Numbered from the stretch's first letter, positions 3,919 to 43,832 are shown. The stretch: DNA of 64,000 nt from Candidatus Saccharimonadota bacterium (GCA_028289135.1 JAQGGW010000005.1:139219-203218); one strand, 5' to 3'. Numbers and translations are program-made. Notes: generated by a model from the letters alone, not told the origin.

Positions 3919-5955
3919 ATGGAACTAACAGGGGGTCTGACTGGTTTAAAAGGCGTGGGGCCAAGCGTTGCGGCGCTTTTTAAGGGCATTGGCATTTCGA
4001 CAATTGCCGAGCTGCTGGATTACTTTCCGCGTACGTATAATGACTATTCCGAAATCCAGACGATTTCGAAGATCAAACCCGGGATGGTTACCGTTGAGGT
4101 CGAGATTAAACAGTCCACAGGGCGCTATGTCCGCCGCGGCATGCATATCACCGAAGCAGTTGCTTCGGACGCTACAGGCAGCGTGCGTTTGCTGTGGTTT
4201 AACCAGCCCTATAGAGCCGCAAGCATTAAAACAGGCCAAAAATACTTTGTTACCGGCAAGCTGGAGCTTAAGGCCCAGCGCTTTAGTATTACAAACCCAA
4301 GTATGGAACAATCAAGCGATTTTCCGCTTCACACGGCACGCATTGTTCCGGTTTATCGTGAAAGCAAGGGCATAACTTCAACACTTCTGCGGCGGGTTTT
4401 ATACCAAGTGATCAAGTCCGCTTATCTATTGCCCGAACCTTTGCCAGAAGAAATCCGACGTAAATATAAATTGTTAACTTACGGCGCTGCAATTAGCGAA
4501 CTGCATTTTCCAACTTCGCGCGAAAGCTTTGCGGCTGCACGGCGGACGATTGGTTTTATAGAAGTTTTTGAGCTGATGCTGGCGGCATCATTAAACAAAG
4601 CCCAGAACCAAAGCGAACCGGCTCCATCAATCCCTTTTAAAGAAAAACTGGCCCAGAAGTTTGTAAAGTCTTTGCCGTTTACCTTAACCAACGCCCAAAG
4701 AGTTGCCGCATGGCAGATTTACCAAGATATTGTCTTCCCGGTACCTATGAACAGGCTTTTGGAAGGCGATGTTGGCTCCGGCAAAACCGTGGTGGCGGGG
4801 ATGGCCGGTCTAATGGCTATGGAGGCCGGATACCAAGTTGCATTAATGGCGCCGACTGAACTTTTGGCGCGGCAGCATGCCGAAACTTTAACCGATTTGT
4901 TTAAGGCGACTGGGCATGATGAGGTCGTGAGCCTACTTGTCGGAAGTTTAAAACCGGCCCAAAAGAAGATAGCCCAGGAACGCATTGCTAGCGGGCATAT
5001 CAAGTTTATTGTTGGAACGCAGGCTTTGCTGCAAGAAAAAGTTGTCATGCAAAACTTGGGGCTGTTGATTGTGGACGAACAGCACCGTTTTGGCGTTGAC
5101 CAGCGTAAAAAGTTGCTAAAAAGTTCGGGGTATATGCCGCATGTGCTCAGCATGACGGCCACCCCAATTCCGCGCTCTTTAGCATTGACGCTGTACGGTG
5201 AGCTGGATATTTCGCTTTTGGATGTTATGCCTATGGGCCGCAAGCCGATTATTACCGAAATTGTATCGCCGAACAGCCGAGAACCGCTTTATAAAAAAAT
5301 CGACGACGAAATTACGCAGGGACGTCAGGTTTACATAGTCTGCCCAGTCATTAAGGAAGGTTCTGGCCTAAAAGCGCCAAGCGCCGAGCAAACATATGAA
5401 AAATTGCGTAAAACCACCTTTAAACATCGCCAGCTGAGGCTTTTGCATGGCAAAATGAAAGACGATGAAAAATCCGCTGTTATGGAAGAGTTCGCAGCCG
5501 GGAAAATAGACATCTTGGTGGCAACAACCGTAATTGAAGTTGGTATCAGCGTCGCTAATGCCAGCGTGATGGTCATAGAGGGCGCTGACAGGTTCGGTCT
5601 TGCCCAAATGCACCAGCTCCGCGGCCGTGTGGGACGGAGTACCGATCAGGGCTACTGTTTTATTGTGCCAAGTGATAGCAAAGCCCCCAGCCCTAGGTTG
5701 CGGGCACTGAGCCAGTCTACAGATGGATTTAAGTTGGCAGAACTTGATCTAGAGCTACGCGGACCAGGAGCTATTTATGGCACGCTGCAGCACGGTGAGC
5801 TTGACCTGCGGATAGCCAAGCTCAGCGATGCCAAACTGCTGGCCGAAAGCCGCAAAGCGGTAAATGACTTTATTAAGGCAAAAATTAAATTGAGCGATTA
5901 CCCCGAACTAAAACGTCGTGTGCGTGCCGCCCAAGCCGTCGTTACCCTGAATTAG
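3910..5955 (+). CDS. recG: ATP-dependent DNA helicase RecG
   Basis: 681 aa. Walker A GDVGSGKT, DEQHRFG, TATPIPR, QLRGRVGR. SD GAAAGG 6 nt upstream. Confidence 0.93.
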   Translation: MGSMELTGGLTGLKGVGPSVAALFKGIGISTIAELLDYFPRTYNDYSEIQTISKIKPGMVTVEVEIKQSTGRYVRRGMHITEAVASDATGSVRLLWFNQPYRAASIKTGQKYFVTGKLELKAQRFSITNPSMEQSSDFPLHTARIVPVYRESKGITSTLLRRVLYQVIKSAYLLPEPLPEEIRRKYKLLTYGAAISELHFPTSRESFAAARRTIGFIEVFELMLAASLNKAQNQSEPAPSIPFKEKLAQKFVKSLPFTLTNAQRVAAWQIYQDIVFPVPMNRLLEGDVGSGKTVVAGMAGLMAMEAGYQVALMAPTELLARQHAETLTDLFKATGHDEVVSLLVGSLKPAQKKIAQERIASGHIKFIVGTQALLQEKVVMQNLGLLIVDEQHRFGVDQRKKLLKSSGYMPHVLSMTATPIPRSLALTLYGELDISLLDVMPMGRKPIITEIVSPNSREPLYKKIDDEITQGRQVYIVCPVIKEGSGLKAPSAEQTYEKLRKTTFKHRQLRLLHGKMKDDEKSAVMEEFAAGKIDILVATTVIEVGISVANASVMVIEGADRFGLAQMHQLRGRVGRSTDQGYCFIVPSDSKAPSPRLRALSQSTDGFKLAELDLELRGPGAIYGTLQHGELDLRIAKLSDAKLLAESRKAVNDFIKAKIKLSDYPELKRRVRAAQAVVTLN

Positions 5956-6157: not shown

Positions 6158-6973
6158 ATGTATTCTGGACTAACCCTAACTCGTTACTCTGGGCGGCTAT
6201 TTGGCGGCCATCAACATGTTGACCGTGTGGCACGCAGGCATTTGGCCGAGCTTATGCACCCAAAATCGGCCTTTCCAGGGATCCGTTCAATTTTGCATTT
6301 TGAAGGCAAAAACGGTCCGGACGGCATAAAGCGCAAAAGCCCCTCCCGCAATGAGCCGTGGCATTTTTTTGAACCGCTAAAAGGCGATACGACGGCATTT
6401 ATGAAACTCATAGAGCAACATTACAAGCAACTCGTTAAAGAGCTTAAGGCAAAGAACAAAGAACGGTCGGCATTTGAAGCCGCTTGGTTTGCACATACCA
6501 TTGTTGACGGCTTAACTCCGGCGCACCATTATCCGTACGAAGAAAAAATGGCTGAGCTTCGGGGAGGAGCCGCGAAAGATGACCGTACGACCGTTATGCA
6601 AAAGTGGATTTTTAAAGGAGATACCAAATCAAAAACACTGCAAAATGTGTTTAAAACCTGGGGTCCGCGCGGGCTGTATATTGCCCACGGTATGTTTGAG
6701 CTGGGGTTTGGCTTTATTATTAAACCTCTTCGCTTTCCAGATGCGCGCCCACGCCCAAGCGACATACTTTTGGCTAAAAAATTAGGTTATCACGAATATT
6801 ATTTGCGCCAGGCGCGTAAAGTTGCCCGCATGCAACTGTTTGATGCTTACATTAAAGATGGCTGGACGAGCAAGATCAGCCGTCAGGTACGCGAAGAGCT
6901 AGCGCCGACTATCGTAAAGACAATCACAATAATGTGGTACATAGCTGCCGAAGAAGCGGGAGTAGATAAGTGA
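6158..6973 (+). CDS. hypothetical protein (His-rich motif HTIVDGLTPAHH)
   Basis: ORF is open from GTG 6131. ATG 6158 lies 7 nt after TATACT (6145-6150), so the start is uncertain. No confident family call. Confidence 0.6.
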   Translation: MYSGLTLTRYSGRLFGGHQHVDRVARRHLAELMHPKSAFPGIRSILHFEGKNGPDGIKRKSPSRNEPWHFFEPLKGDTTAFMKLIEQHYKQLVKELKAKNKERSAFEAAWFAHTIVDGLTPAHHYPYEEKMAELRGGAAKDDRTTVMQKWIFKGDTKSKTLQNVFKTWGPRGLYIAHGMFELGFGFIIKPLRFPDARPRPSDILLAKKLGYHEYYLRQARKVARMQLFDAYIKDGWTSKISRQVREELAPTIVKTITIMWYIAAEEAGVDK

Positions 6974-7500
6974 GAATCATTGCTGGGTACTTAGGCGGTA
7001 GGATTTTTGATTCGCCAGAAACGGGCAATACACATCCGATGGGCGAAAAACCCCGGGGAGCGATCTTTAATGCCTTGGGCGATATTGAGGGCCTGACTGT
7101 TTTGGACGCCTATGCCGGCAGCGGAGCGCTAGGGTTTGAGGCAATTAGCCGCGGTGCAAAGTCGGTGGTGGCTGTGGAGCTGGATAAACAGGCCTATAAA
7201 ACAATTGTTGATAATATTTTTAAACTTGGTCTTGAGGATAAAGTCCATGCGGTGATCTCGACAATGCGCGCTTGGTCCAACAAAAACCAAAACCTAATGG
7301 TCGACATAGCCATCTGTGACCCGCCGTACGACGCAGTGCTGGCGCTTGAGATTGAGCGCCTCGTTAAGCATGTTAAGAAAAACGGCTTGCTGGTGCTTTC
7401 GTGGCCATCCAAGCTGGAAGCGCCGCCAATGCCAGGCTGCGAAATCTTAAATGAAAAAGAATACGCCGGTGCCAGGATTGTTTTTTATAGGAAGTCATAA
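6970..7500 (+). CDS. rsmD: 16S rRNA (guanine966-N2)-methyltransferase RsmD-like
   Basis: 176 aa. SAM-binding DAYAGSGALGFEAISRGA and catalytic DPPY. 4-nt overlap with the upstream ORF. Confidence 0.85.
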   Translation: MRIIAGYLGGRIFDSPETGNTHPMGEKPRGAIFNALGDIEGLTVLDAYAGSGALGFEAISRGAKSVVAVELDKQAYKTIVDNIFKLGLEDKVHAVISTMRAWSNKNQNLMVDIAICDPPYDAVLALEIERLVKHVKKNGLLVLSWPSKLEAPPMPGCEILNEKEYAGARIVFYRKS

Positions 7501-8265: not shown

Positions 8266-8349
8266 GCGCGAGTGGTGAAATGGTAGACACGCTAGCCTTA
8301 GGAGCTAGTGCCGCAAGGTGTGCTGGTTCAAGTCCAGTCTCGCGCACCA
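8266..8349 (+). tRNA. tRNA-Leu (anticodon UAG), class II, CCA encoded
   Basis: Hand-folded cloverleaf. Acceptor GCGCGAG/CTCGCGC, anticodon stem CTAGC/GCTAG with loop CTTAGGA, 13-nt variable arm, T-arm GCTGG-TTCAAGT-CCAGT, 3' ACCA. Confidence 0.9.
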
Positions 8350-31364: not shown

Positions 31365-33455
31365 ATGGCAGACGCAAAGAAAACACCAATGAAAGACATC
31401 CGCAACTTGGGCATTATCGCCCACATTGACGCGGGTAAAACCACTACCACCGAAGGTATTTTGTACCGCACTGGCATCAGCCACAAGATTGGCGCCGTGC
31501 ACGAAGGCGAAACCACTACCGACTGGATGGCTCAGGAGCGTGAGCGCGGTATTACCATCGTTGCTGCCTCTGTTACGTGTTTTTGGAAGGGTAATCAGAT
31601 TAACATTATCGATACTCCTGGTCACATTGACTTTACGGTTGAAGTCGAACGTTCACTCCGTGTGCTTGACGGCGCCTGCGTTGTGTTCGACGGCAAGATG
31701 GGTGTCGAAAGCCAGTCCGAAACTGTTTGGCGCCAGGCCGACAAATACGGCGTGCCTCGTATCTGTTTTATCAACAAAATCAACCAAACCGGTGGCGATT
31801 TCTACAAGAGCCTCGAATCAATTCATAACCGTTTGAGCAAGCGTGCTTTCCCAGTCCACATTCCAATTGGCTTTGAACAGAGCATCAACGGTCTTGTTGA
31901 CCTAGTTGAAATGAAGGCCTATACCTACACCGAATTCCACGACAAAGAATTAGTTGAAGCGCCAATTCCAGAAGACATGATGGATCAGGTTAAAAAAGCC
32001 CGCAGCCTGCTGGTTGAAAACGCCGTTGCCGAAGACGAAGCAATTCTTGAAAAATACTTTGAAGTTGGCGAAGAAGGTCTTAGCGTTGCTGAAATCAAGC
32101 AGGCGATCCGTACCGCAGTATTGTCTGGCAAGTTCTTTGCCGTTACCGGCGGCGATGGCCGTGGTGTTATCGTTGAAAAAGTTTTGGACATGGTGAATGA
32201 CTACCTCCCAAGCCCGCTGGACAAGGGTTCAACTTGGGGCACGCATCCAAAAACTGGTGACGAAGAAGAGCGCAAGCCATCCGAAGCTGAGCCGTTTTCA
32301 GCACTTGCGTTCAAGATTACTACCGACCCATTTGTTGGTAAGCTGGCATACTTCCGCGTTTATTCCGGAACTGTTACCGCTGGTTCATACATTTTAAACA
32401 GCTCAAACGGTGAAAAAGAGCGCGTTGGCCGTATTGTCCGCCTCCAGGCCGACAAACGTGCTGACGTTACCGAAGTGGGTGCTGGTGACATTGCCGCAAT
32501 CGTCGGCCTAAAGGCTACAACTACTGGCCATACCCTTTGTGACCCTGCGCACCCAATTGTGCTTGAAAGCATCGAATTCCCAGAACCACCTGTTTCTATC
32601 GCCATCGAACCAAAGACCAAGTCTGACCAAGAAAAAATGGGCATTGCTATGCAGCGCCTTGCCGAAGAAGATCCAACATTTAGAATCCGTGTCGACGACG
32701 AAACCGGCCAAACGGTTATCTCTGGAATGGGTGAGCTTCACCTCGAAATCCTGGTTGACCGCATGAAGCGCGAATTTGATGTTGAAGCCAACATTGGCGC
32801 GCCGCAGGTTGCCTACCGCGAAACTGTCCGCAAAGCAGGCGTTGAAGCCCAAGGTAAGTTTATCCGCCAATCTGGTGGACGTGGCCAATACGGTGACGCG
32901 TGGCTCAGAATTTCTCCAAACGAACAAGGCAAGGGCTTTGAGTTCAAAAACTCCATCAAGGGTGGTGTTATACCTGGTGAATACATCAAGCCAGTTGAAG
33001 CTGGTGTTGTTGAAGCCATGAGCACCGGTACCGTCGCTGGTTACCCAGTTGTTGATGTTATTGTTGAGCTGTTTGACGGTTCTTACCACGAAGTTGACTC
33101 CAACGAAATGGCCTTCAAAATCGCCGGCTCAATGGGCTTCCAGGCCGCAATGAAAGCCGCTGGACCAGTTTTGCTCGAACCTGTCATGAAAGTCGTTGTT
33201 GTAACTCCTGAAGAGTTCATGGGTGACGTCATCGGCGACCTAAACTCCAAGCGCGCACGCATTGAATCCATGGAAGACCTAAGCTCCGGCATCAAAGAAA
33301 TTACTGCTTTTGTTCCTCTTGGCGAAATGTTTGGCTACACAACCGCGCTACGTTCTTCTACCAAAGGCCGCGCAAGCAGCTCAATGGAGCTTGACCACTA
33401 CGCTGACGTTCCAAACCACGTTGCCGAAGCAATTGCATCTAAACGAGCAAAATAA
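31365..33455 (+). CDS. fusA: elongation factor G
   Basis: 696 aa. G1 AHIDAGKTT, DTPGHIDF; full five-domain length. Confidence 0.97.
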   Translation: MADAKKTPMKDIRNLGIIAHIDAGKTTTTEGILYRTGISHKIGAVHEGETTTDWMAQERERGITIVAASVTCFWKGNQINIIDTPGHIDFTVEVERSLRVLDGACVVFDGKMGVESQSETVWRQADKYGVPRICFINKINQTGGDFYKSLESIHNRLSKRAFPVHIPIGFEQSINGLVDLVEMKAYTYTEFHDKELVEAPIPEDMMDQVKKARSLLVENAVAEDEAILEKYFEVGEEGLSVAEIKQAIRTAVLSGKFFAVTGGDGRGVIVEKVLDMVNDYLPSPLDKGSTWGTHPKTGDEEERKPSEAEPFSALAFKITTDPFVGKLAYFRVYSGTVTAGSYILNSSNGEKERVGRIVRLQADKRADVTEVGAGDIAAIVGLKATTTGHTLCDPAHPIVLESIEFPEPPVSIAIEPKTKSDQEKMGIAMQRLAEEDPTFRIRVDDETGQTVISGMGELHLEILVDRMKREFDVEANIGAPQVAYRETVRKAGVEAQGKFIRQSGGRGQYGDAWLRISPNEQGKGFEFKNSIKGGVIPGEYIKPVEAGVVEAMSTGTVAGYPVVDVIVELFDGSYHEVDSNEMAFKIAGSMGFQAAMKAAGPVLLEPVMKVVVVTPEEFMGDVIGDLNSKRARIESMEDLSSGIKEITAFVPLGEMFGYTTALRSSTKGRASSSMELDHYADVPNHVAEAIASKRAK

Positions 33456-33634
33456 TGTCTCCTAAAACTCCCGAATATATTAATCCTGCCGAAGCACCTG
33501 TTGACCTTGTTCGCGATAGTGAAACACGATCAACTCTTTATGTAGTCGGCGGCGCAATTTTATTTGCAGCAGTTGCTGCTGGTGCAGTAATGATCGGTGC
33601 GCCAAAGAAATTGTTCAGATTCGAAAGTGACTGA
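33455..33634 (+). CDS. hypothetical single-pass membrane micro-protein (59 aa)
   Basis: Below the ORF-track cutoff. Its ATG overlaps the fusA TAA (TAATG). MSPKTPEYINPAE...LYVVGGAILFAAVAAGAVMIGAPKK has one clear hydrophobic helix. Confidence 0.45.
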   Translation: MSPKTPEYINPAEAPVDLVRDSETRSTLYVVGGAILFAAVAAGAVMIGAPKKLFRFESD

Positions 33635-33664
33635 TAATTAATAACTGGGTGGCGGAGAATTGAC

Positions 33665-34264
33665 ATGCCTACTCATCCCGAACTTGTAGCACAAACACTT
33701 TTGACACTTGAGGCACATCGCCAGGCTCCCCATATAATTGATGATGCCTATGAAGATGGCATTATTGATGATGCTCATCATCTAGTAATTACTTCTAAAG
33801 GCAACTCGCAAACTGCAGTAGTGACACCGATGTATAGGGGCTTCGTGTATGGTTCAAGCCTGCTCGAACGATTTGATATGGCGGCATTATGTAATCGAGT
33901 TTTTGTCGAGGCGCGTATTAAAGTGGCTTCAAATGATCGTAAACAACTTGAAACAGCCAACGTAACGCTTAGATATGCTTTTGCACCAAAATTCCTACAA
34001 CCAAATAAGGTTCTAGAAACCCAGGCTCGCTACCCATTAGATCCAGAGGCCGAATATGGCACTATGGAAAGAGTTATTGCTGCAATTGGCGAAGTAGGTG
34101 TTGAAGGGGCAACAGTTCCAAATACTAGTGGTTATGTAGAGGTACCTGATGACCCGTACAGAAAAAATAACGACCGCTGGGTTGTAACTGATCACATGAG
34201 CGGTTTAGTAGTTGCTGAATGTATCCATGAAGCAGTGAGCCGGTTGCATTTTACGGAGCTTTAA
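33665..34264 (+). CDS. hypothetical protein (199 aa, ORFan)
   Basis: SD GGAG ~8 nt upstream. No recognisable motif. Sits between fusA and tuf. Confidence 0.5.
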   Translation: MPTHPELVAQTLLTLEAHRQAPHIIDDAYEDGIIDDAHHLVITSKGNSQTAVVTPMYRGFVYGSSLLERFDMAALCNRVFVEARIKVASNDRKQLETANVTLRYAFAPKFLQPNKVLETQARYPLDPEAEYGTMERVIAAIGEVGVEGATVPNTSGYVEVPDDPYRKNNDRWVVTDHMSGLVVAECIHEAVSRLHFTEL

Positions 34265-34267
34265 CCC

Positions 34268-34297
34268 TTTACAAACACCTATAGTTTGAGGTATATT
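34268..34297 (+). promoter_or_regulatory. promoter TTTACA-N18-TATATT upstream of tuf
   Basis: CCCTTTACA block (also present at the infA promoter). -35 at 34268-34273, -10 at 34292-34297. ~105-nt leader with CCATCT...AGATGG helix. Confidence 0.5.
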
Positions 34298-34403
34298 AAG
34301 ACCATCTCGCGTGAGGGCATTGTTAGGTTTGCTCCAGATGGAGCGGCCGAGCAGTAAGATCGCGGAAATAATAACAAATTATCATAACAAGGAGACTCTC
34401 CAC

Positions 34404-35588
34404 ATGGCAGAGAATTTTGATCGAACAAAGCCTCACGTTAACGTAGGTACTATGGGTCACGTTGACCACGGTAAAACAACTCTAACAGCTGCAATTACTA
34501 CTGTTTTGGCAAAGCGTATGCCAAGCAAAGTTAACCAACCAATTGCTTACGACCAGATCGACAACGCACCTGAAGAAAAAGCTCGTGGTATCACGATTGC
34601 TACTTCCCACCAGGAATACGAATCAGAAAAGCGCCACTACGCGCACGTCGACATGCCAGGTCACGCCGACTACGTTAAGAACATGATTACCGGTGCCGCT
34701 CAGATCGACGGCGCAATCTTGGTTGTTGCTGCAAACGACGGTCCACTTCCACAGACTCGTGAGCACGTATTGCTCGCCCGCCAGGTCGGTGTTCCAAGCA
34801 TCCTCGTATTCATGAACAAGATGGACCTTGCTGATCCAGAACTCATCGAACTTGTTGAGATGGACATCCGCGAACTCTTGGCCAAGAATGGTTATGACGA
34901 AAACGCTCCAATCATCAAGGGCTCAGCTACAAAAGCTATGGCCGGCGACAAAGAAGCTGAAGACGCTATTATGGAACTCGTTAAGGCTATGGACGACTTC
35001 GTTCCAGAACCAAAGCGCGAACTCGATAAGCCATTCTTGATGAGCATCGAAGACGTATTCTCGATCAAGGGTCGTGGTACTGTTGCAACCGGTCGTATCG
35101 AAACTGGTATCGTTAAGGTTAACGAAGAAGTTGAAATCGTCGGTCTTAAGGACACTCGTAAGAGCGTTGTTACCGGTGTTGAAATGTTCAAGAAGAACCT
35201 CGACCAAGGTCAGGCTGGCGACAACGTCGGTATCCTCCTCCGCGGTATCGAGCGTGAAGATATCGAGCGCGGCCAAGTTTTGGCTAAGCCAGGTACTATC
35301 ACTCCTCACACCGAATTTGACGCTGAAGTTTATATCTTGACCAAAGAAGAAGGCGGCCGTCACACTCCTTTCTTCAAGGGCTACAAGCCACAGTTTTACT
35401 TCCGCACAACGGACGTAACTGGTGAAGTTGAACTCCCAGCTGACAAAGAAATGGTTATGCCTGGTGACACTATCACTTTCAAAGTGAAGCTTCTCCAGCC
35501 AATCGCCATGGAACAAGGTCTCCGCTTCGCTATCCGCGAAGGTGGCCGTACTGTTGGTGCTGGTGTTGTTACTAAGATTACTAAGTAG
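34404..35588 (+). CDS. tuf: elongation factor Tu
   Basis: 394 aa from [34 protein letters not shown] 8 nt upstream. The longer ORF-track start (34311) is not supported. Confidence 0.97.
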
Positions 35589-35718
35589 GTTCTCGCCCAT
35601 TTATCAGGGTACATTGCAGGCTAAAACCTGCGACAGAAAAAGGAGCAGTACGTTTGTACAGCTCCTTTTTCGTGCTCGGCCTTAGCTCTGCACTGCACTC
35701 CTGAAAATGACCGAGAAC
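35589..35718. repeat. 130-nt whole-spacer imperfect palindrome (copy A) directly after tuf
   Basis: Outer arms GTTCTCGCCCATTT (35589-35602) / AAATGACCGAGAAC (35705-35718). The 5' half and the reverse complement of the 3' half align along the whole length. Apex is the terminator hairpin. Homologous to copy B. Confidence 0.75.
35637..35670 (+). terminator. intrinsic (bidirectional-looking) terminator of tuf
   Basis: AAAAAGGAGCAGTAC-GTTT-GTACAGCTCCTTTTT, with an A-run and a T-run flanking the stem. Confidence 0.8.
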
Positions 35719-35870
35719 GGCTCAACTACGCTTCTATGCACGGCAAGAAACGAAAAACTGCATCCAAATGCATCGGCCAGTGACATGTTTGAATTGTTCC
35801 AGGAAATGAGATTTTGTTATTTTAGTCAAAACTATGCTAAAGTAGGTTTAATTAAATGAGGTTAATTGAG

Positions 35871-36215
35871 ATGGCGGAATTTTGTCCTGGATGCGATAGA
35901 GCGGGAATGGTTGTAGGTGATGTAGCTATAAGTATAAAAAAAGACGAACTTAGAAGTCCTTTAACAGATCTAGCTATAACTTTTACAGACGAAGATGGTT
36001 TTTTGCAACGCGGTTTTTTTGGTAGAGTTGTAGACCAAGAAGCAGACCTGGATACCAGCCTACTTGGCGAACGTCTTCTCAGCCGTATAGATCGCTGTAA
36101 AAGCCCAATGAGAAATGGTACATGCCCAGCCTTTAATCATGAGGTGGTTGAACAGTTAATACGATCTCAAGTAAGCCAGGAAGCAATAACTGAGCCTGAC
36201 CAGCCAGGAATTTAG
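35871..36215 (+). CDS. hypothetical protein with two Cys pairs (possible zinc-ribbon-like)
   Basis: MAEFCPGCDRAG...RCKSPMRNGTCPAF. ATG 35871 has GAGG 9 nt upstream; ATG 35856 is also possible. Confidence 0.45.
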   Translation: MAEFCPGCDRAGMVVGDVAISIKKDELRSPLTDLAITFTDEDGFLQRGFFGRVVDQEADLDTSLLGERLLSRIDRCKSPMRNGTCPAFNHEVVEQLIRSQVSQEAITEPDQPGI

Positions 36216-36295
36216 AAAAGCAAAAATACCATCGTGTAAAGAAGCTCACTGACTTATCTAGATAGACATTCATAATAAGTATCTTAGGAGTGCTT

Positions 36296-36628
36296 ATGTC
36301 TGTAGAGTTTAAGGGGCCTGTTATACCTGTTAGAATTGATGGCGAAAATGCTTCGCTACGTATTGTGCGTGATATGTCGTATAACATCGAAGCCGCCAGC
36401 GTGCTGTCTAACCCCGATGCAAATCCACCTTATGTCCAGCTAACACTGATATCTCCTCCAGGACCGCATTATAAAGAAGTTTGTGCAGATAAAATTACAG
36501 GTGATCCTGAGCCAAACCGTGCTCGCCTTATGTTTAACGAGCCATTTGGCGTTGATAAACTTATAGCTAACGCAATGAAAAGAGTAAGCAAGTCCAGGCA
36601 CCCAGCAGGAAGAGGAAATGCGAATTAA
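36296..36628 (+). CDS. hypothetical protein (110 aa, ORFan)
   Basis: SD GGAG 5 nt upstream of ATG 36296. No recognisable motif. Confidence 0.5.
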   Translation: MSVEFKGPVIPVRIDGENASLRIVRDMSYNIEAASVLSNPDANPPYVQLTLISPPGPHYKEVCADKITGDPEPNRARLMFNEPFGVDKLIANAMKRVSKSRHPAGRGNAN

Positions 36629-36687
36629 TTAAATTGCTTGACAGTAGGAATATAATTAAAGCATAAGTATTAATAAGGAACACAAAA

Positions 36688-36918
36688 ATGAAAAATGGAT
36701 TTGAGGATTCGGTAGCTCCAGTAGCTTATGGAGCTGATTTCGCTGGGCGAGTTGCTGTTGCAAGAGTTAATATGGATCAAGTATTAGAAACTCATCCTAA
36801 ACCAGATGTAAGATCTGTTGCAGCTCATGCGGGCAAAGTAATATTTCGAGAAATTGTATTTGCAGGTGCATGGTTAAACGCTGAAATTCATGGCGTAGAT
36901 CTTAGCCAAGTTGGTTAG
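36688..36918 (+). CDS. hypothetical protein (76 aa, ORFan)
   Basis: SD AAGGAA 8 nt upstream. No recognisable motif. Confidence 0.45.
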   Translation: MKNGFEDSVAPVAYGADFAGRVAVARVNMDQVLETHPKPDVRSVAAHAGKVIFREIVFAGAWLNAEIHGVDLSQVG

Positions 36919-37047
36919 GCTTTTCTTTTAAAGAAAAATGTTGTAAGATAACAGGGTAAATTAATGACGATGACTAAAAGTCGTTGTCCCGCTCTCTATA
37001 ATGGGCCAAAGATGTTACATCGCACGTGAAGAAAGGTTTTATATATT

Positions 37048-37410
37048 ATGGCTGAAGAAAAAAAGCCCGCAGCAACCAAAGCAGCTGCACCAGTAAAAAC
37101 TGAAGGCAAGCAACGCATCCGTATCCGTCTCAAGGCATACGACCACAAAGTAATCGACCAGTCTGCTAAGCAGATTGTTGATACCGCGCTCCGCACAGGT
37201 GCTACCATTGCTGGTCCAATCCCTCTCCCAACCCGTCGTAACACCTTCACCGTTGTTACCAGCCCGCACGTGTTTAAAAAAGGTCGTGAACAGTTTGAAA
37301 TGCGTATTCACAAGCGCCTGATTGACGTTTTTGACCCAACTCCAAAGACAATCGACAGCCTCATGAACTTGAGCCTGCCAGCCGGCTGCGACGCTGAAAT
37401 CAAAATGTAA
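37048..37410 (+). CDS. rpsJ: 30S ribosomal protein S10 (with A/K/P-rich N-terminal extension)
   Basis: 120 aa; core [19 protein letters not shown]... Perfect TATAAT at 36997-37002 upstream and a terminator immediately downstream. Confidence 0.95.
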
Positions 37411-37420
37411 CCATCTAAAG

Positions 37421-37450
37421 GGGCCTGGGAAACCGGGCCTTTTACTTTTT
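37421..37450 (+). terminator. intrinsic terminator right after rpsJ
   Basis: GGCCTGG-GAAA-CCGGGCC (7 bp, one G-U, GNRA loop) followed by TTTTACTTTTT. Confidence 0.8.
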
Positions 37451-37789
37451 ATGATTCACTTTCATGCTAATTATTTCGAAGGCACGACACAGCTCGGCCC
37501 TCATGTTACTCGTACTTTTGTTATTAACGAGGCTGGCTTCAGCGTGCCTGGTGCAATAACCGCATTTGAGGAATTAGAGTTAGCACGTGTCATTACATTC
37601 GCGCCTCATGTACATTTCGACACAAATGTTGAGCATCCAAGTATTCTTGTCCGCAATTCCGTGAAGGCCGGGAAACATATTGCTAAAGTCTTACGGCTAA
37701 GCGATTGGGGGGTTGGTAACTTCTCGAATGTATTCAACACAGATGCACTAGATTTTTGGCGTCCACAACAAGCTGACGATGATCTCTAA
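37451..37789 (+). CDS. doubtful hypothetical protein (112 aa)
   Basis: The ATG abuts the T-run of the rpsJ terminator and there is no SD or promoter. No motif recognised. Confidence 0.3.
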   Translation: MIHFHANYFEGTTQLGPHVTRTFVINEAGFSVPGAITAFEELELARVITFAPHVHFDTNVEHPSILVRNSVKAGKHIAKVLRLSDWGVGNFSNVFNTDALDFWRPQQADDDL

Positions 37790-37804
37790 GAGTGGTAAGT
37801 TAAC

Positions 37805-38158
37805 AAAAAAATAACCCCGGGCCTGATAAGCTTCGGGGTTATTTCGTATTCCGTCAGATGTATTCTTCGCGCATAGCCAGCTATTTCGAATTATTGCTGA
37901 GCAGGGTTATCAGCCCTCTTTTTCACGCTAGTCTGAGTCTCGCGCCGCACGGATACAATTTGCCGCTTAGCGATGGTGCCGGAGGTAAAAGGTTGGTCAA
38001 CTCTTGTCCATGGAACAAGCCGCCGCCTCTATTTTTACAACCTTCCTACAATAGCAGCTCACAACCAGTTTGGGCCGTACCCTCGCCGCATTGCTTATCA
38101 CCCTCCCAAAACAGAAGAATGCTCCTTAAACATACACTGGAACCATAACCAAAATCAA
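37805..38158 (-). ncRNA. candidate ~350-nt structured non-coding RNA, unclassified
   Basis: No credible ORF on either strand. Minus-strand TTGACC (38192-38187), 16-18 nt, then TATATAAA (38170-38163). Minus-strand terminator AACCCCG...CGGGGTT (37840-37813) plus T7. The transcript ends pair: 38114-38142 with 37849-37868 (4+4+7 bp). Confidence 0.45.
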
Positions 38159-38209
38159 CTATTTTATATATGAAAAAACTTACAGCGGTCAAAATGGTAT
38201 ATTAAAGTC

Positions 38210-38683
38210 ATGAATAAAGTTGTTGTGGCCGCAGAAGCTTTGGACCTTAGGCGGGGAATTGATTATATTGGTATTTCGGCTAATTTTGTCATTCACGATG
38301 GCAAAGGCAATATTTTATTACAAAAACGGAGCCAGAACTGCCGTGATGAACAGGGCAACTGGGACATTGGCGGCGGGGCTTTAGAATTTGGCGAAACTCT
38401 AGTAGAAGGCGTACGGCGCGAAGTTAAAGAAGAACTAATGACCGAAGCATTGGAAATAAAACTTCTAAAAGCCTACGAAGCCATCCGTGACAACAACGGT
38501 ACGCCTACGCACTGGATGGCGTTTACCCACGCCGTGCTGGTTGATCCTAAATCTATAAAAATTGGCGAACCACACAAGATTGATGAAATTGGCTGGTTTA
38601 CATCCGCGAACTTACCGAGTCCGCTGCACAGCCAGTTTTATAAGTCTTTTGATATTGCCCGCGAGCTCGGAATTGTGCATTAA
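38210..38683 (+). CDS. NUDIX hydrolase
   Basis: 157 aa. Nudix box GGGALEFGETLVEGVRREVKEELM. Extended -10 TGGTATATT (38195-38203) lies 6 nt before the ATG. Confidence 0.88.
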   Translation: MNKVVVAAEALDLRRGIDYIGISANFVIHDGKGNILLQKRSQNCRDEQGNWDIGGGALEFGETLVEGVRREVKEELMTEALEIKLLKAYEAIRDNNGTPTHWMAFTHAVLVDPKSIKIGEPHKIDEIGWFTSANLPSPLHSQFYKSFDIARELGIVH

Positions 38684-38738
38684 TCCAACTGTGGCATATC
38701 TAACAGCTTATGCTAAAGGGTTTTGATAACTTTATTAG

Positions 38739-39035
38739 GTGGAGTTTCCCCCATACGAAGCAGGTGAAGACGAACTTCTAACGGCCGCCAGAGGTGCTGT
38801 ACCTGAACTTTGCGGTGGATGTGAAGATATTAATGAGTTGGCATTTAGTTTATATAAACATGCTGCATATGAACGTGATTTTTTTAGACGTGATAGGCGT
38901 TCCAGATATCCTGATACTTTACGGATGCAACCTCCAAATCCAGAGCGCCTAGCCAGACACATATCCCTTGTTATTGTGGCAAAATGTTTATCACAGTGTC
39001 CATACGGCGTCCCTGTGCGAATAAGAACTTCTTAG
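38739..39035 (+). CDS. hypothetical protein with CGGC and CLSQC pairs (98 aa)
   Basis: GTG start without a convincing SD. Two Cys pairs. Confidence 0.3.
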   Translation: MEFPPYEAGEDELLTAARGAVPELCGGCEDINELAFSLYKHAAYERDFFRRDRRSRYPDTLRMQPPNPERLARHISLVIVAKCLSQCPYGVPVRIRTS

Positions 39036-39050
39036 TGCTACACTTAATTT

Positions 39051-39944
39051 ATGAAATTTGGCGCTACTTTTTCATATAAATATGCCCTGGAAATGAGCGT
39101 TGACCCCAAGGAGTGTCTAAAAGCGGCACTGGATGATCTGGGTGTAAGGAGATTGCGCCTTATGAGCTACTGGGATCTCCACGAACCCAAACAAGGCTCC
39201 TACGACTTCACAGAGCTCGACTGGCAGGTTGATATGGCCGAGCAGTCTAATTGTGCTGTTTTGCTATGCCTTGGCCTCCGGCAGCCCCGTTGGCCCGAGA
39301 GCCATTGGCCGGCTTGGGCAAAAGTGTTACCGGATGCAGAGTGGCAAAAGGCGCTGGACGACTACATTACAGTGGTGGTTAACAGATATAAAGGCCGGAA
39401 ATGTATCTTAAGCTATGAGTTAGAAAACGAAGCACTGCTAAAAGCCTTTGGACTAGATGGTAACTATGACCGTAACAGATTAAAACGTGAGTTTAAACTG
39501 GTTAAAACATTGGATCCAAGCCGGATAGTCATAATGAGCACCAGCGACTCCGGCGGTTTCCCATTATTTGGCCCAAAACCAGATATGTACTCCTACACAA
39601 TCTACCGTTACTTCTTTAGGCGCGGCAAGTACCGCCACTCTGTCCGCCCAGCTTGGACATACCACCTGCGGGCACAAATTATCTATCTGTTTAAGCGCCG
39701 TAAATCTTTCATCCATGAGCTCCAAGCTGAACCGTGGGGTCCAGAAGGCACTTCAAAGTTAACTGTCGAAGAGCAGTTTAAGAGTATGAACAGGGAAAGA
39801 GTCCAGGAAGCTGTGGCATACGTGCGCCGTACGCAACTGCTTCCAGCTGACCTTTGGGGCTTGGAGTGGTGGTACTGGCTAAAAACGGCTCAAGATATGC
39901 CGGAAATATGGAATGACCTAAAACCTATATTCGCTGAGGAATAA
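39051..39944 (+). CDS. glycoside hydrolase, clan GH-A TIM-barrel-like (family unassigned)
   Basis: 297 aa. SYELENE (acid/base-type NE) and IHELQAEPWG (nucleophile-type E) spaced as in clan-A enzymes. Confidence 0.6.
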   Translation: MKFGATFSYKYALEMSVDPKECLKAALDDLGVRRLRLMSYWDLHEPKQGSYDFTELDWQVDMAEQSNCAVLLCLGLRQPRWPESHWPAWAKVLPDAEWQKALDDYITVVVNRYKGRKCILSYELENEALLKAFGLDGNYDRNRLKREFKLVKTLDPSRIVIMSTSDSGGFPLFGPKPDMYSYTIYRYFFRRGKYRHSVRPAWTYHLRAQIIYLFKRRKSFIHELQAEPWGPEGTSKLTVEEQFKSMNRERVQEAVAYVRRTQLLPADLWGLEWWYWLKTAQDMPEIWNDLKPIFAEE

Positions 39945-39949
39945 CAGTT

Positions 39950-40495
39950 CTACTCTCCAAATAAACTGGTGGTGGTTGCCATACCAACAGTAACCGTTGC
40001 TAACATCTGTAGTGGGTGCTTTTTGCCATCCTGGTTGCCTACGCGTATAAATCTATCAAAAAATGCCGCTCGCGCACCCCAGTAAGAGGTAAATCTTGTG
40101 TCCACGTGCGCTGCTCTGCGTGGATCTACTTTTGCACTTCTAGCTGCCGCACCTAGAGCGTTTAGTGAAGTTAAAAACCCGCCGTATTCGTTGGGAGCAT
40201 ATACGGGAGGGTAGCCAAGCTGCGCCTGGACCATTTCAACCAAAGTAGACGAAATTCCACAGGCATCCGCCGGGAGGTCTTGGTGGTTGTCGTTTATAAT
40301 CGCGGTTTTGATCCCAACTTCGGCCAATTCCTCAAGCAATGTCTGTGCATGCTCATGTACATCATAAGTGTTACTACCATGAGCTAGCATCAAACTACCA
40401 AGTCCAAAGGTAACCAGGCCAATACCGCCTTGCTCAAACCCTTTTGCGTTAAGTTTGCTTAAGTCGACGCCTACTTCTATTCCAGTTCTTAACAT
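39950..40495 (-). CDS. hypothetical protein (181 aa)
   Basis: Only sizeable minus-strand ORF inside the r-protein region that does not overlap a plus-strand gene. No motif recognised. Confidence 0.5.
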   Translation of the reverse strand: MLRTGIEVGVDLSKLNAKGFEQGGIGLVTFGLGSLMLAHGSNTYDVHEHAQTLLEELAEVGIKTAIINDNHQDLPADACGISSTLVEMVQAQLGYPPVYAPNEYGGFLTSLNALGAAARSAKVDPRRAAHVDTRFTSYWGARAAFFDRFIRVGNQDGKKHPLQMLATVTVGMATTTSLFGE

Positions 40496-40584
40496 GCGTA
40501 CAAGTGTAGGGCAGCCTTATATTAAAGTAAAACGCTAAAGCTAATGTAAAATATGCTGCAACACGCAGTAGAATGCACAACGTC

Positions 40585-40614
40585 TTGACAGGGGTAGTGT
40601 TAGCATGGTAATCT
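40585..40614 (+). promoter_or_regulatory. promoter TTGACA-N18-TAATCT (extended TG) of the rplC operon
   Basis: -35 at 40585-40590, TGG at 40606-40608, -10 at 40609-40614. Confidence 0.6.
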
Positions 40615-40647
40615 GTAGTGGTATATCAACAAATTGTGTACGCAGCA

Positions 40648-40701
40648 CTTGGTAAATTGGCAGGTCTAACAGATTAGAAACCGCCTCCTACCAAGGTTTT
40701 T
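40648..40701 (+). promoter_or_regulatory. terminator-like hairpin in the rplC leader (possible autoregulatory attenuator)
   Basis: Three stacked helices: CTTGGTA/TACCAAG, GGC(A)GG/CCGCC and TCTAA/TTAGA. Followed by GTTTTT, 55 nt before the rplC ATG. Confidence 0.5.
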
Positions 40702-40756
40702 AATAGCTGTGCCTCACAGAGATATCGAAAGATAACTCATAAAAAATAAGGAATCT

Positions 40757-41374
40757 ATGAAAGCACTTATTACTCGAAAGGTCGGCATGACAAGCCTAGT
40801 ATCTGATACTGGTGTTGTTACTGCTGTTACCTTGCTTTCCGCTAGTCCTTGCGTCATTACGCAAGTGAAGACCATTGATACTGATGGGTATCAAGCGGTC
40901 CAAATTGGCACAGAAGTTGCCAAGAACGCCAGCAAGCCGGCTCAAGGCCACGCTACCAAAGCTGGTGTAGCACCATCAAAAATTACACGCGAAATCCGCG
41001 TGGACGAAATCACAGAAGAATTAACCGTCGGCACCGAACTCAAGGCCGACGTTTTTAGTGTCGGTGATTCCGTCCAAGTTACTGGGACAAGCAAGGGTAA
41101 AGGCTTTGCCGGAACCATCAAGCGCCACAATTTTAAGCGCCAGCGCAAAACCCACGGTGGTAAGGGTGATACCCGCAAGCCAGGCTCAATTGGCTCAATG
41201 TACCCACAGCGTATTTTTAAGGGCAAGCGTATGGCTGGCCGCATGGGCGGTGACCAAGTTACTGTTCGCGGTCTCAAGATTGAACTTGTTGACACAGAGC
41301 TAAACGTTATCGCTGTCAGCGGAGCCGTTCCTGGCCCGCGTAAAAGCATTGTGCTACTGAAAGGAACCAACTAA
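40757..41374 (+). CDS. rplC: 50S ribosomal protein L3
   Basis: 205 aa, MKALITRKVGMTS...; conserved L3 blocks. Confidence 0.96.
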   Translation: MKALITRKVGMTSLVSDTGVVTAVTLLSASPCVITQVKTIDTDGYQAVQIGTEVAKNASKPAQGHATKAGVAPSKITREIRVDEITEELTVGTELKADVFSVGDSVQVTGTSKGKGFAGTIKRHNFKRQRKTHGGKGDTRKPGSIGSMYPQRIFKGKRMAGRMGGDQVTVRGLKIELVDTELNVIAVSGAVPGPRKSIVLLKGTN

Positions 41375-42042: not shown

Positions 42043-42422
42043 TGAAAGATCTCATGTTAATTCCTAGAATCTCCGAAAAGGCATATGCCATGAGCCAGCG
42101 CGACAACATTAAGACCTATGTCTTTGAAGTCCCAACCGGTTCAAACAAGCATTCTGTTGCCCGCGCCGTGACCATGCAGTTTGACGTTGTTGTTACCAGT
42201 GTCCGCACAACTACTGCTAAGGGCAAGGTTAAGCAAAGTTACCGCAAGGGCGGCCGCCCAATTACCGGAACCCGCAGCGATGTTAAAAAGGCATATGTAA
42301 CACTCCGTGAAGGCGATGTTTTGCCATTATTCATAGAAGAGCAGCAAGAAGAAGAAAAGCAGCTTAAGGCTGACCAAAAAGCTGCTAAAGAAGCCAAAAA
42401 GGCTAAGAAGGAGACCAAGTAA
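42042..42422 (+). CDS. rplW: 50S ribosomal protein L23 (Lys/Glu-rich C-terminal extension)
   Basis: 126 aa. L23 core plus tail EEQQEEEKQLKADQKAAKEAKKAKKETK. Confidence 0.93.
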   Translation: MKDLMLIPRISEKAYAMSQRDNIKTYVFEVPTGSNKHSVARAVTMQFDVVVTSVRTTTAKGKVKQSYRKGGRPITGTRSDVKKAYVTLREGDVLPLFIEEQQEEEKQLKADQKAAKEAKKAKKETK

Positions 42423-42679
42423 TGGCTATTCATAACCAAGACCCTTTTGTCTTACATATTGACGATGTTCTTGCACATAATTCTATCGCAACTGGCATAA
42501 AAGACGCTACGGGATTAGATACGGTTTTTGTACCAGCAAATCCTAGCAATACACCTAAAGAAAATGCTATGTTTGCTGGAAAAGCTGCTCTAGCTAGTTC
42601 AATTAATAATGGTGGTTTAGTAAGAGCTGCAGAAGCTATTATTGAAGAACGTGGTGGTTTATTTGGGGAGGCAATCTAA
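42422..42679 (+). CDS. hypothetical acidic micro-protein (85 aa) inserted between rplW and rplB
   Basis: TAATG overlaps at both ends. Its first 10 nt (ATGGCTATTC) are identical to the first 10 nt of rplB. Carries the rplB SD (GGGGAGG). TTA/AGA/ATA codons. Confidence 0.5.
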   Translation: MAIHNQDPFVLHIDDVLAHNSIATGIKDATGLDTVFVPANPSNTPKENAMFAGKAALASSINNGGLVRAAEAIIEERGGLFGEAI

Positions 42680-43535: not shown

Positions 43536-43832
43536 ATGATGTTCCCTAATACTTTAGTAGAAAAAGAAATGAACAGATTTACAGAAAGAGTTGTATCGTA
43601 CGCTAATGGATCTGATCCAAGAACTCGTGATGGTATGCTTTCTGTTGTTGCTGAGGAAATTGCTATAAGTGCTGTTGACAGTCCTTTGGCCCATCCAATA
43701 GCGTGGAAAAAAGATGCCTACGATGCTATCGGTGGTTATAACCGAATAGCGGCACCGGTTATTGAGAACGCTGTTGACTTTGTATTAAAAGAAATTGGAA
43801 GAACAGCAAGCTTAGGAGGCCGATATGTCTAG
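43536..43832 (+). CDS. hypothetical micro-protein (98 aa) inserted between rplB and rpsS
   Basis: ATG 2 nt after the rplB stop. Its 3' end supplies AGGAGG for rpsS, and its TAG lies within rpsS codons 2-3 (ATGTCTAG). Several AGA codons. Confidence 0.5.

Follow-up and report, generated by a model that had tools for sequence, protein, structure and literature searches.

The separation of rpsJ, the gene for ribosomal protein S10 (NusE), from rplC is the ordinary architecture of the Saccharibacteria sampled here, and represents a lineage-wide variant of a known arrangement rather than an anomaly of one genome. We analysed a 64-kb stretch of DNA (Candidatus Saccharimonadota bacterium, GCA_028289135.1; hereafter the window) that covers the str-S10 region of a Saccharibacteria (TM7) genome. 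In it, rpsJ (37048-37410, plus strand, 120 aa; Pfam PF00338 Ribosomal_S10, 4.7e-34, residues 25-119) lies 3346 nt upstream of rplC (40757-41374, plus strand; Pfam Ribosomal_L3, 7e-14), with five unrelated genes between the two. This distance agrees with the roughly 3.3 kb given in the original prediction, which had been made from the sequence of the window alone. The accompanying idea, that an event peculiar to this genome left rpsJ stranded, is not supported: synteny comparison finds the split in 73 of 73 species, which is the outcome that the prediction had itself named as incompatible with that idea. A literature search for an earlier account of the split, or of the leader RNAs described below, in Saccharibacteria or the Candidate Phyla Radiation (CPR) found none among the papers covered.

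The comparison used one genome per species and took the 80 loci closest to the window by S10 similarity, essentially all of which are labelled Saccharibacteria or Saccharimonadales. Across this set rplC identities reach down to about 53%, and the genes neighbouring rpsJ were placed by tblastn. Gap statistics rest on the 73 loci that hold both rpsJ and rplC. The canonical adjacency of the S10 operon, with rpsJ tens of nt from rplC, is found neither in the window nor in any of these relatives: the gap is at least 134 nt in all 73 loci and below 100 nt in none. Its median is 1226 nt, its upper quartile 2395 nt and its maximum 7641 nt, with 44 loci having gaps of at least 1 kb and 13 of at least 3 kb; in two further loci no rplC occurs within 8-10 kb of rpsJ. 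The gap in the window falls in the upper quartile, yet it is unexceptional. From rplC onwards the canonical S10 operon is found (rplC-rplD-rplW-rplB-rpsS and beyond), in the window with two small cistrons interposed that are orphan open reading frames (ORFs), or ORFans. The median junctions across relatives are −1 nt for rplC-rplD, −25 nt for rplD-rplW, 2 nt for rplW-rplB and 6 nt for rplB-rpsS. Upstream the junctions are open, with medians of 511 nt for fusA-tuf and 523 nt for tuf-rpsJ. The closest relative that we found (loci L082 and L083) has an rplB 97.5% and an rplC 92% identical to those of the window.

The explanation that we regard as probable when taken as a whole is one of two divided units, each with its own promoter and leader, and a permissive boundary between them. 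The classical S10 operon would have been permanently divided into two transcription units in this lineage. The first would consist of rpsJ, with a predicted extended −10 promoter (TG-TAAGAT) and then a structured leader of about 66 nt, which could allow S10, in its second capacity as NusE as well, to be set independently. The second would start at rplC, with a TTGACA-N17/18-TAATCT promoter and then a hairpin and U-run that every rplC transcript would have to cross; this hairpin may act as a protein-stabilized transcription attenuator, like the leader of the Escherichia coli S10 operon that responds to L4 and NusA. The DNA between the units would be an ordinary permissive operon boundary at which mostly co-oriented accessory genes come and go by insertion and deletion of single genes, and in the window a strong terminator straight after rpsJ would make that gene monocistronic.

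The rpsJ unit and its leader

Upstream of rpsJ in the window, a terminator-like hairpin and T-run (36901-36928, plus strand; stem 36901-36919, tail CTTTTCTTTT) closes an ORFan unit (orf76, 36688-36918). It is followed by the probable rpsJ −10 element, which is of the extended type (36942-36949, plus strand) and consists of TG and the hexamer TAAGAT. This order of terminator and then promoter recurs in relatives, for example at loci L019 and L060. Across loci the −10 block, as TGTTGTAAAAT, TTGTACAAT or TTGTAAGAT, is conserved at a constant distance 5′ of the rpsJ leader, and the TG and TAAGAT of the window are identical in L082. We therefore take TAAGAT at 36944-36949 as the likely, predicted −10 of rpsJ. 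The original prediction had assigned this role to a TATAAT at 36997-37002. That hexamer is present, but we reject it as a promoter because it has no usable −35 element and was not called by a promoter scan, because it sits in the variable tip (P3) of the rpsJ leader, and because the closest relative, L082, has TATAGT.

The structured 5′ leader of rpsJ (36962-37027, plus strand) comprises helix P1, helix P2 with a bulged G, and the variable P3. Its covariance model, R2, scores 46.5 bits (E 3e-08) in the window, where it finds a single copy; it finds one copy per locus in 61 loci, every time upstream of rpsJ. The layout in relatives, from 5′ to 3′, is a TG-extended −10 (TGTTGTAAAAT and variants), a conserved single-stranded segment, GUAAAUUAAU, then P1, an internal loop, P2 and the variable apical hairpin. 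P1 covaries at five of its six pairs; at one column pair we counted CG 25 times, AU 16, UA 7, GC 5 and GU 2, with none broken. P2 takes the form AAGUC/GAU(G)UU or, in a second variant, AACUC/GAG(G)UU, and its covariation amounts to G·U in 38 sequences and C-G in 19, with no sequence unpaired. In the window leader, RNAfold favours a local GAC-UAAAA-GUC hairpin, which we rejected as the conserved fold: the variant GAGAACUC cannot form it, and P1 and P2 covary.

The leader is missing from loci in which rpsJ abuts tuf (gap below 60 nt), where rpsJ is presumably co-transcribed with tuf. At L001 (9513-9579) and L024 (9705-9771) it lies 240-420 nt 5′ of rpsJ instead of 20-50 nt, which suggests an insertion between leader and gene. 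The S10 protein itself carries an N-terminal, Lys/Ala-rich extension of about 20 residues ahead of the Pfam domain (37048-37110 in the window), which is also found, at variable length, in relatives.

A conserved, covarying structure in the 5′ untranslated region of a ribosomal protein (r-protein) gene is one mark of an r-protein leader, and the leaders of both rpsJ and rplC have it. We infer that both are operators for autogenous r-protein control. However, the rpsJ leader could also be a NusB-NusE (boxA-type) site or the site of another transcription factor, or a mere stabilizing 5′ structure, and not an operator for S10 or L4. S10 is NusE, the single-stranded segment GUAAAUUAAU in the leader is conserved, and Nus factor genes are believed to be widely autoregulated through boxA (PMC10931766). 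Our own comparison, which did not include the rRNA leader of this lineage, found no obvious match to the boxA consensus, and the covariation favours a helical recognition element over a single-stranded one. On balance we consider it unlikely that the leader serves one of these other purposes.

An intrinsic terminator (37418-37450, plus strand) begins 8 nt 3′ of the rpsJ stop codon in the window. It consists of an 11-bp stem (37418-37443) with six GC pairs and a GAAA loop, followed by the tail ACTTTTTATG. This GC-rich hairpin with its U-tract is more stable than expected by chance (minimum free energy (MFE) −18.3 kcal/mol, z −3.5, 0 of 200 shuffles) and is the top terminator match in 33-46 kb. 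A GAAA-tetraloop terminator with a T-run closely after rpsJ had been predicted, and it proves to be the strongest in the region. Flanked by the terminator-like hairpin at 36901-36928 and this terminator, and with its own predicted −10, a leader and a separate predicted promoter for rplC, rpsJ in the window looks like an insulated single-gene unit.

The rplC promoter and leader hairpin

The predicted rplC promoter region spans 40568-40614 (plus strand). A −35 element, TTGACA (40585-40590), is followed after an 18-nt spacer by the −10 hexamer TAATCT (40609-40614), which is preceded by TGg (40606-40614 in all). The strong promoter that the original prediction had assigned to rplC at 40585-40614 thus stands at its exact position, as TTGACA-N18-TAATCT. 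Elements at the 17-18-nt spacing of a sigma-70-type promoter are kept in relatives: TTGACN-N17/18-TRNNNT is found in 67 of the 67 loci that carry the hairpin described below, 58 of them with TTGACA, and the −10 is TAATCT or TACTCT. The promoter is also present in all seven of the shortest rpsJ-rplC gaps (134-198 nt), as is the hairpin except at L055, L070 and L074. Just 5′ of the −35 lies a further block, GTAGAAT..CAAC (40568-40581), with a −10-like hexamer there in 43 of the 67 loci; this block may represent a further promoter in tandem or a site for a regulator.

The presence of a full consensus promoter in 67 of 67 species would be hard to explain if upstream transcription sufficed, as it would if the S10 operon were functionally intact, with the rpsJ promoter reading through leaky terminators and cargo genes into rplC and the rplC promoter serving as an internal booster. 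In the window, such transcription would also have to get past two hairpin terminators, both strong (−18.3 and −18.6 kcal/mol), and past a convergent gene on the minus strand (39950-40495); among the 174 gap ORFs of relatives, 36 have the opposite orientation. We consider an intact operon improbable, although 79% of gap ORFs point the same way as the r-protein genes, about 63% of species (the closest relative included) have no recognizable terminator after rpsJ, and the first gap gene, orf112, starts in the terminator U-tract without a Shine-Dalgarno (SD) sequence of its own, which suggests reliance on read-through.

The rplC leader contains a terminator-like hairpin and U-run (40646-40704, plus strand), a candidate attenuator. 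Its covariance model, R1, scores 59.8 bits (E 2e-14) and finds a single copy in the window and one per locus in 69 loci, every time just upstream of rplC. Of the 14 pairs in the hairpin, 10 show compensatory changes (RNAalifold on a MAFFT alignment of 49 sequences). With the explicit structure 93.4% of cells are paired, whereas shifting the partners by 1-3 columns brings the share down to 31-49%, and 0 of 500 shuffles reach the observed values. The hairpin of the window has an MFE of −17.2 (z −3.0). The promoter ends 14-40 nt ahead of the hairpin and, in several species, the distance from the U-run to the rplC ATG is 18-31 nt. This leaves no room for a further promoter, and the hairpin therefore belongs to the rplC leader. 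Its stem carries a conserved bulged A and a 3′ AA internal loop, and the U-run begins 1-2 nt beyond the stem, which is the anatomy of a conditional terminator.

A promoter followed after about 25 nt by a structured hairpin with a U-run would also suit a small-RNA gene, and the element has no Rfam match. It is nevertheless very doubtful that it encodes an independent small RNA (about 85 nt), or is simply an insulator terminator, and is not a leader or attenuator of rplC: rplC and at least ten downstream essential genes would be left without a promoter, in several species with only those 18-31 nt between U-run and start codon, and the element is found nowhere but immediately upstream of rplC. 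The two roles are in any case compatible, since attenuation of a leader would yield a short RNA as well.

Neither leader corresponds to a family in Rfam 15. At the gathering threshold the only match anywhere in the window is a tRNA-Leu (at 8266); when 36600-40800 was searched at E≤10, no match overlapped either leader, the weak matches being terminator look-alikes. The sequences flanking the rplC hairpin may also interact: within 40620-40740, the flank 5′ of the hairpin can pair with the flank 3′ of the U-run (−13.7 kcal/mol for the duplex in the window), and duplexes between a species' own flanks are modestly better than those formed across species (−8.6 versus −7.1 kcal/mol, p 7e-04). RNAalifold recovered no consensus for such an outer helix.

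Several considerations weigh against a strict division into two regulated units. Only about 30 of 82 genomes (about 37%) have a recognizable terminator no more than 100 nt past the rpsJ stop codon, and L082 and L083 have only a weak, non-canonical structure after rpsJ and no comparable hairpin. Elsewhere in the lineage a cargo ORF begins within a few nt of the rpsJ stop codon. Probably, then, rpsJ often shares a transcript with the first cargo gene, and separation of the units may be leaky. Given its irregular shape and a U-run that starts only 1-2 nt past the stem, the rplC hairpin may fail to terminate transcription; part of the leader may also pair with downstream sequence into an enclosing helix, which would be in keeping with a role that is purely structural or translational. 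When R1 and R2 were run against the rrn operon of E. coli (16S, 23S and 5S, and not the rRNA of this lineage), they gave terminator-like noise and no mimic. What the sequences show is the architecture, the extent to which it is conserved and the covariation of the two RNAs. Promoter activity, terminator efficiency, read-through, attenuation and the identity of any binding protein are predicted here from sequence, and the species survey stops short of more distant Saccharibacteria (such as the oral TM7x) and of other Patescibacteria. Because the terminator occurs in only about 37% of genomes and is lacking in the closest relative, a monocistronic rpsJ is a frequent but local state: the claim that rpsJ forms a unit by itself holds for the window and does not extend across the lineage.

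Genes between rpsJ and rplC

The gap in the window contains, as predicted, a NUDIX hydrolase, an ORF with Cys pairs, a clan-A glycosidase and a minus-strand ORF. Two details of that prediction needed revision: a first ORF that it had called doubtful is a gene, and the ORF-free DNA that it had put at about 350 nt measures 420 nt. The ORF, orf112 (37451-37789, plus strand; NCBI JWO47_696), is a conserved hypothetical gene with a 62%-identical, 119-aa homologue directly after rpsJ in L082 and L083, and we regard it as real; it has no match in Pfam, NCBIfam, PHROG or PADLOC.

The ORF-free insert (37790-38209) holds two terminator-like hairpins, one at 37809-37844 (−18.6 kcal/mol, z −3.8) and one at 37903-37917 with a T-run. 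It is missing in L082, where the orf112 homologue (orf119) and the NUDIX gene are only 10 nt apart. We tried and rejected it as a non-coding RNA, given fold z-scores of +1.6 and +1.0, no Rfam match and no homologue in the 80 loci or L082. It has no second copy, repeat or blastx remnant, and we treat it as a lineage-specific non-coding insert.

The NUDIX hydrolase gene follows (38210-38683, plus strand; Pfam 1.2e-17). A TGgTATATT read in the stretch 38195-38212 ends 6 nt before its ATG, and a transcript from it would therefore be nearly leaderless. Next come orf98 (38739-39035, plus strand), the Cys-pair ORF, a conserved hypothetical with a 42%-identical homologue at the same position in L083 and no family match, and the clan-A (GH10-like) glycoside hydrolase gene (39051-39944, plus strand; Pfam GH42 6e-06, GH10 2e-05), whose product is 87% identical in L082 and lies near GH10 in a search of Protein Data Bank (PDB) sequences (endo-xylanases to 1.4e-06). 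The last gene, orf181 (39950-40495, minus strand), is a near-ORFan with three matches among 1.84 billion representatives. It sits on a 624-nt segment (39944-40567) that is absent in L082, where the glycoside hydrolase stop codon is 4 nt from the conserved rplC block. L082 thus keeps the order rpsJ-orf112-NUDIX-orf98-glycoside hydrolase-rplC, without the 420-nt insert and orf181.

When the 180 gap ORFs of all loci were clustered, 96 were singletons. NUDIX, the one gap gene of the window that recurs, was found by clustering in nine species including the window (homologues occur in the gap of 8-9 other species), accounting for 13 of 139 gap ORFs by Pfam in relatives; other families among these 139 include CTP synthase, VanY, adenosine deaminase, HAD and similar. 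Taken together, the comparison with L082 and the clustering of the cargo indicate that the interval evolves by precise insertions and deletions of single modules at gene boundaries. A membrane protein of about 90 aa with two helices (motif HEHFxIDRKIEYAxLL) is encoded between rpsJ and rplC in 35 species (for example, L001 10621-10890 and L010 10863-11144); it matches no Pfam family and is absent from the window.

That a recent mobile or horizontally acquired island, particular to this genome, pushed rpsJ away from rplC is already largely refuted and hardly credible: segments 37790-38209 and 39944-40567 are indeed absent in the closest relative and orf181 is almost an ORFan, but the split exists in all 73 related species, orf112, NUDIX, orf98 and the glycoside hydrolase are syntenic in a close relative, and we found no integrase, transposase, flanking repeats or tRNA in the gap, a GC content (0.43-0.50) that matches the surroundings, only a generic NUDIX fold when the gap proteins were searched against PHROG and PADLOC, and no mobility genes (integrase, transposase) among the 25 most frequent of the 55 Pfam families in gap ORFs.

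Small ORFs also occur at other junctions of the region. Within the operon that rplC heads, orf85 (42422-42679, between rplW and rplB) and a second orf98 (43536-43832, between rplB and rpsS) are the two ORFan cistrons mentioned above and have start/stop overlaps. L082 has different, non-homologous intra-operon ORFs (4759-4995 and 6876-7127), one of them at another junction. An rplB-rpsS insert of at least 200 nt is present in 12 of 64 species, each with an unrelated acidic ORF of 80-168 aa. Upstream, fusA (31365-33455, plus strand), tuf (plus strand, ending at 35588) and rpsJ are separated by intervals (33455-34400 and 35589-36918) holding ORFans of 59, 199, 119, 112 and 76 aa with no family match, of which only the 119-aa one, orf119, has a counterpart in L082 (40% identical).

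Known counterparts and implications

The system resembles a classical S10 operon that has been split and whose predicted control elements have moved. In cyanobacteria, plastids and archaea the S10 gene goes with the str/tuf cluster and not with L3. The arrangement in Saccharibacteria is similar in that rpsJ follows tuf and is, by prediction, transcriptionally separate from the operon led by rplC. It differs in that fusA, tuf, rpsJ and rplC are collinear and every junction is open, whereas the tuf-linked systems usually have rpsJ joined to the tuf unit, with the two clusters at separate places in the genome; in Saccharibacteria rpsJ also mostly has a predicted promoter and a leader of its own.

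Attenuation by L4 and NusA has been described for the S10 leader of E. coli (PMC3616713, PMC10931766), a leader that is limited to Gammaproteobacteria (PMC3616713). Both systems have a structured 5′ leader with a terminator-like hairpin that all operon transcripts cross, or here would cross, and by this analogy the rplC leader may be a protein-dependent attenuator. In E. coli, however, the leader precedes rpsJ and one transcript runs from rpsJ through rpsQ, whereas here rpsJ is detached and the hairpin precedes rplC. The E. coli L4-responsive leader, which combines attenuation with NusA and translational repression, also has no sequence or structure match here (Rfam 15).

The only leader described in the same rplC-proximal position is the L4 r-leader candidate of Archaeoglobi, a conserved RNA motif directly upstream of an operon starting rplC, rplD, rplW, rplB (Eckert & Weinberg 2020, PMC7247131). 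It is archaeal, is a different motif (no cmscan match here at E≤10) and was not described as a terminator hairpin; the same 2020 survey of r-leaders contains no CPR or Saccharibacteria leader (PMC7247131). Among the terminator-type r-protein leaders of Firmicutes, such as the L10 leader of Bacillus subtilis, protein binding is thought to promote termination (PMC10931766). The likeness lies in an irregular hairpin with conserved internal loops and then a U-run. The Firmicutes leader belongs to another operon and is another motif without homology to the rplC hairpin, a putative attenuator.

More broadly, it is possible, and we put it forward tentatively, that control of the S10 operon has been replaced in this lineage by two lineage-specific and hitherto undescribed cis-regulatory RNAs: the rpsJ leader, through which S10/NusE would be adjusted separately, and an attenuator ahead of rplC through which the whole large r-protein operon would be gated. 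The insulated interval that separates them and the junctions within the operon might then be a preferred landing site at which accessory and ORFan genes with fast turnover benefit from the highest transcription that a very small genome offers.

For the window alone the split matters little, being normal for the lineage. CPR phylogenies are built on the S10-spc cluster, which is regarded as bacteria's most stable block of synteny, yet in Saccharibacteria the head of this cluster is an open and highly variable boundary. What is new is a pair of well-supported candidate regulatory RNAs, covarying and absent from Rfam, in 61 species for rpsJ and 69 for rplC. Saccharibacteria have reduced genomes, and hardly any work is known to us on how they regulate their genes. 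Since cultivated members of the group can now be manipulated genetically, the candidate leaders are testable. The uncoupling of rpsJ from the rest of the operon may reflect that S10 serves both in the ribosome and, under the name NusE, as a transcription factor.

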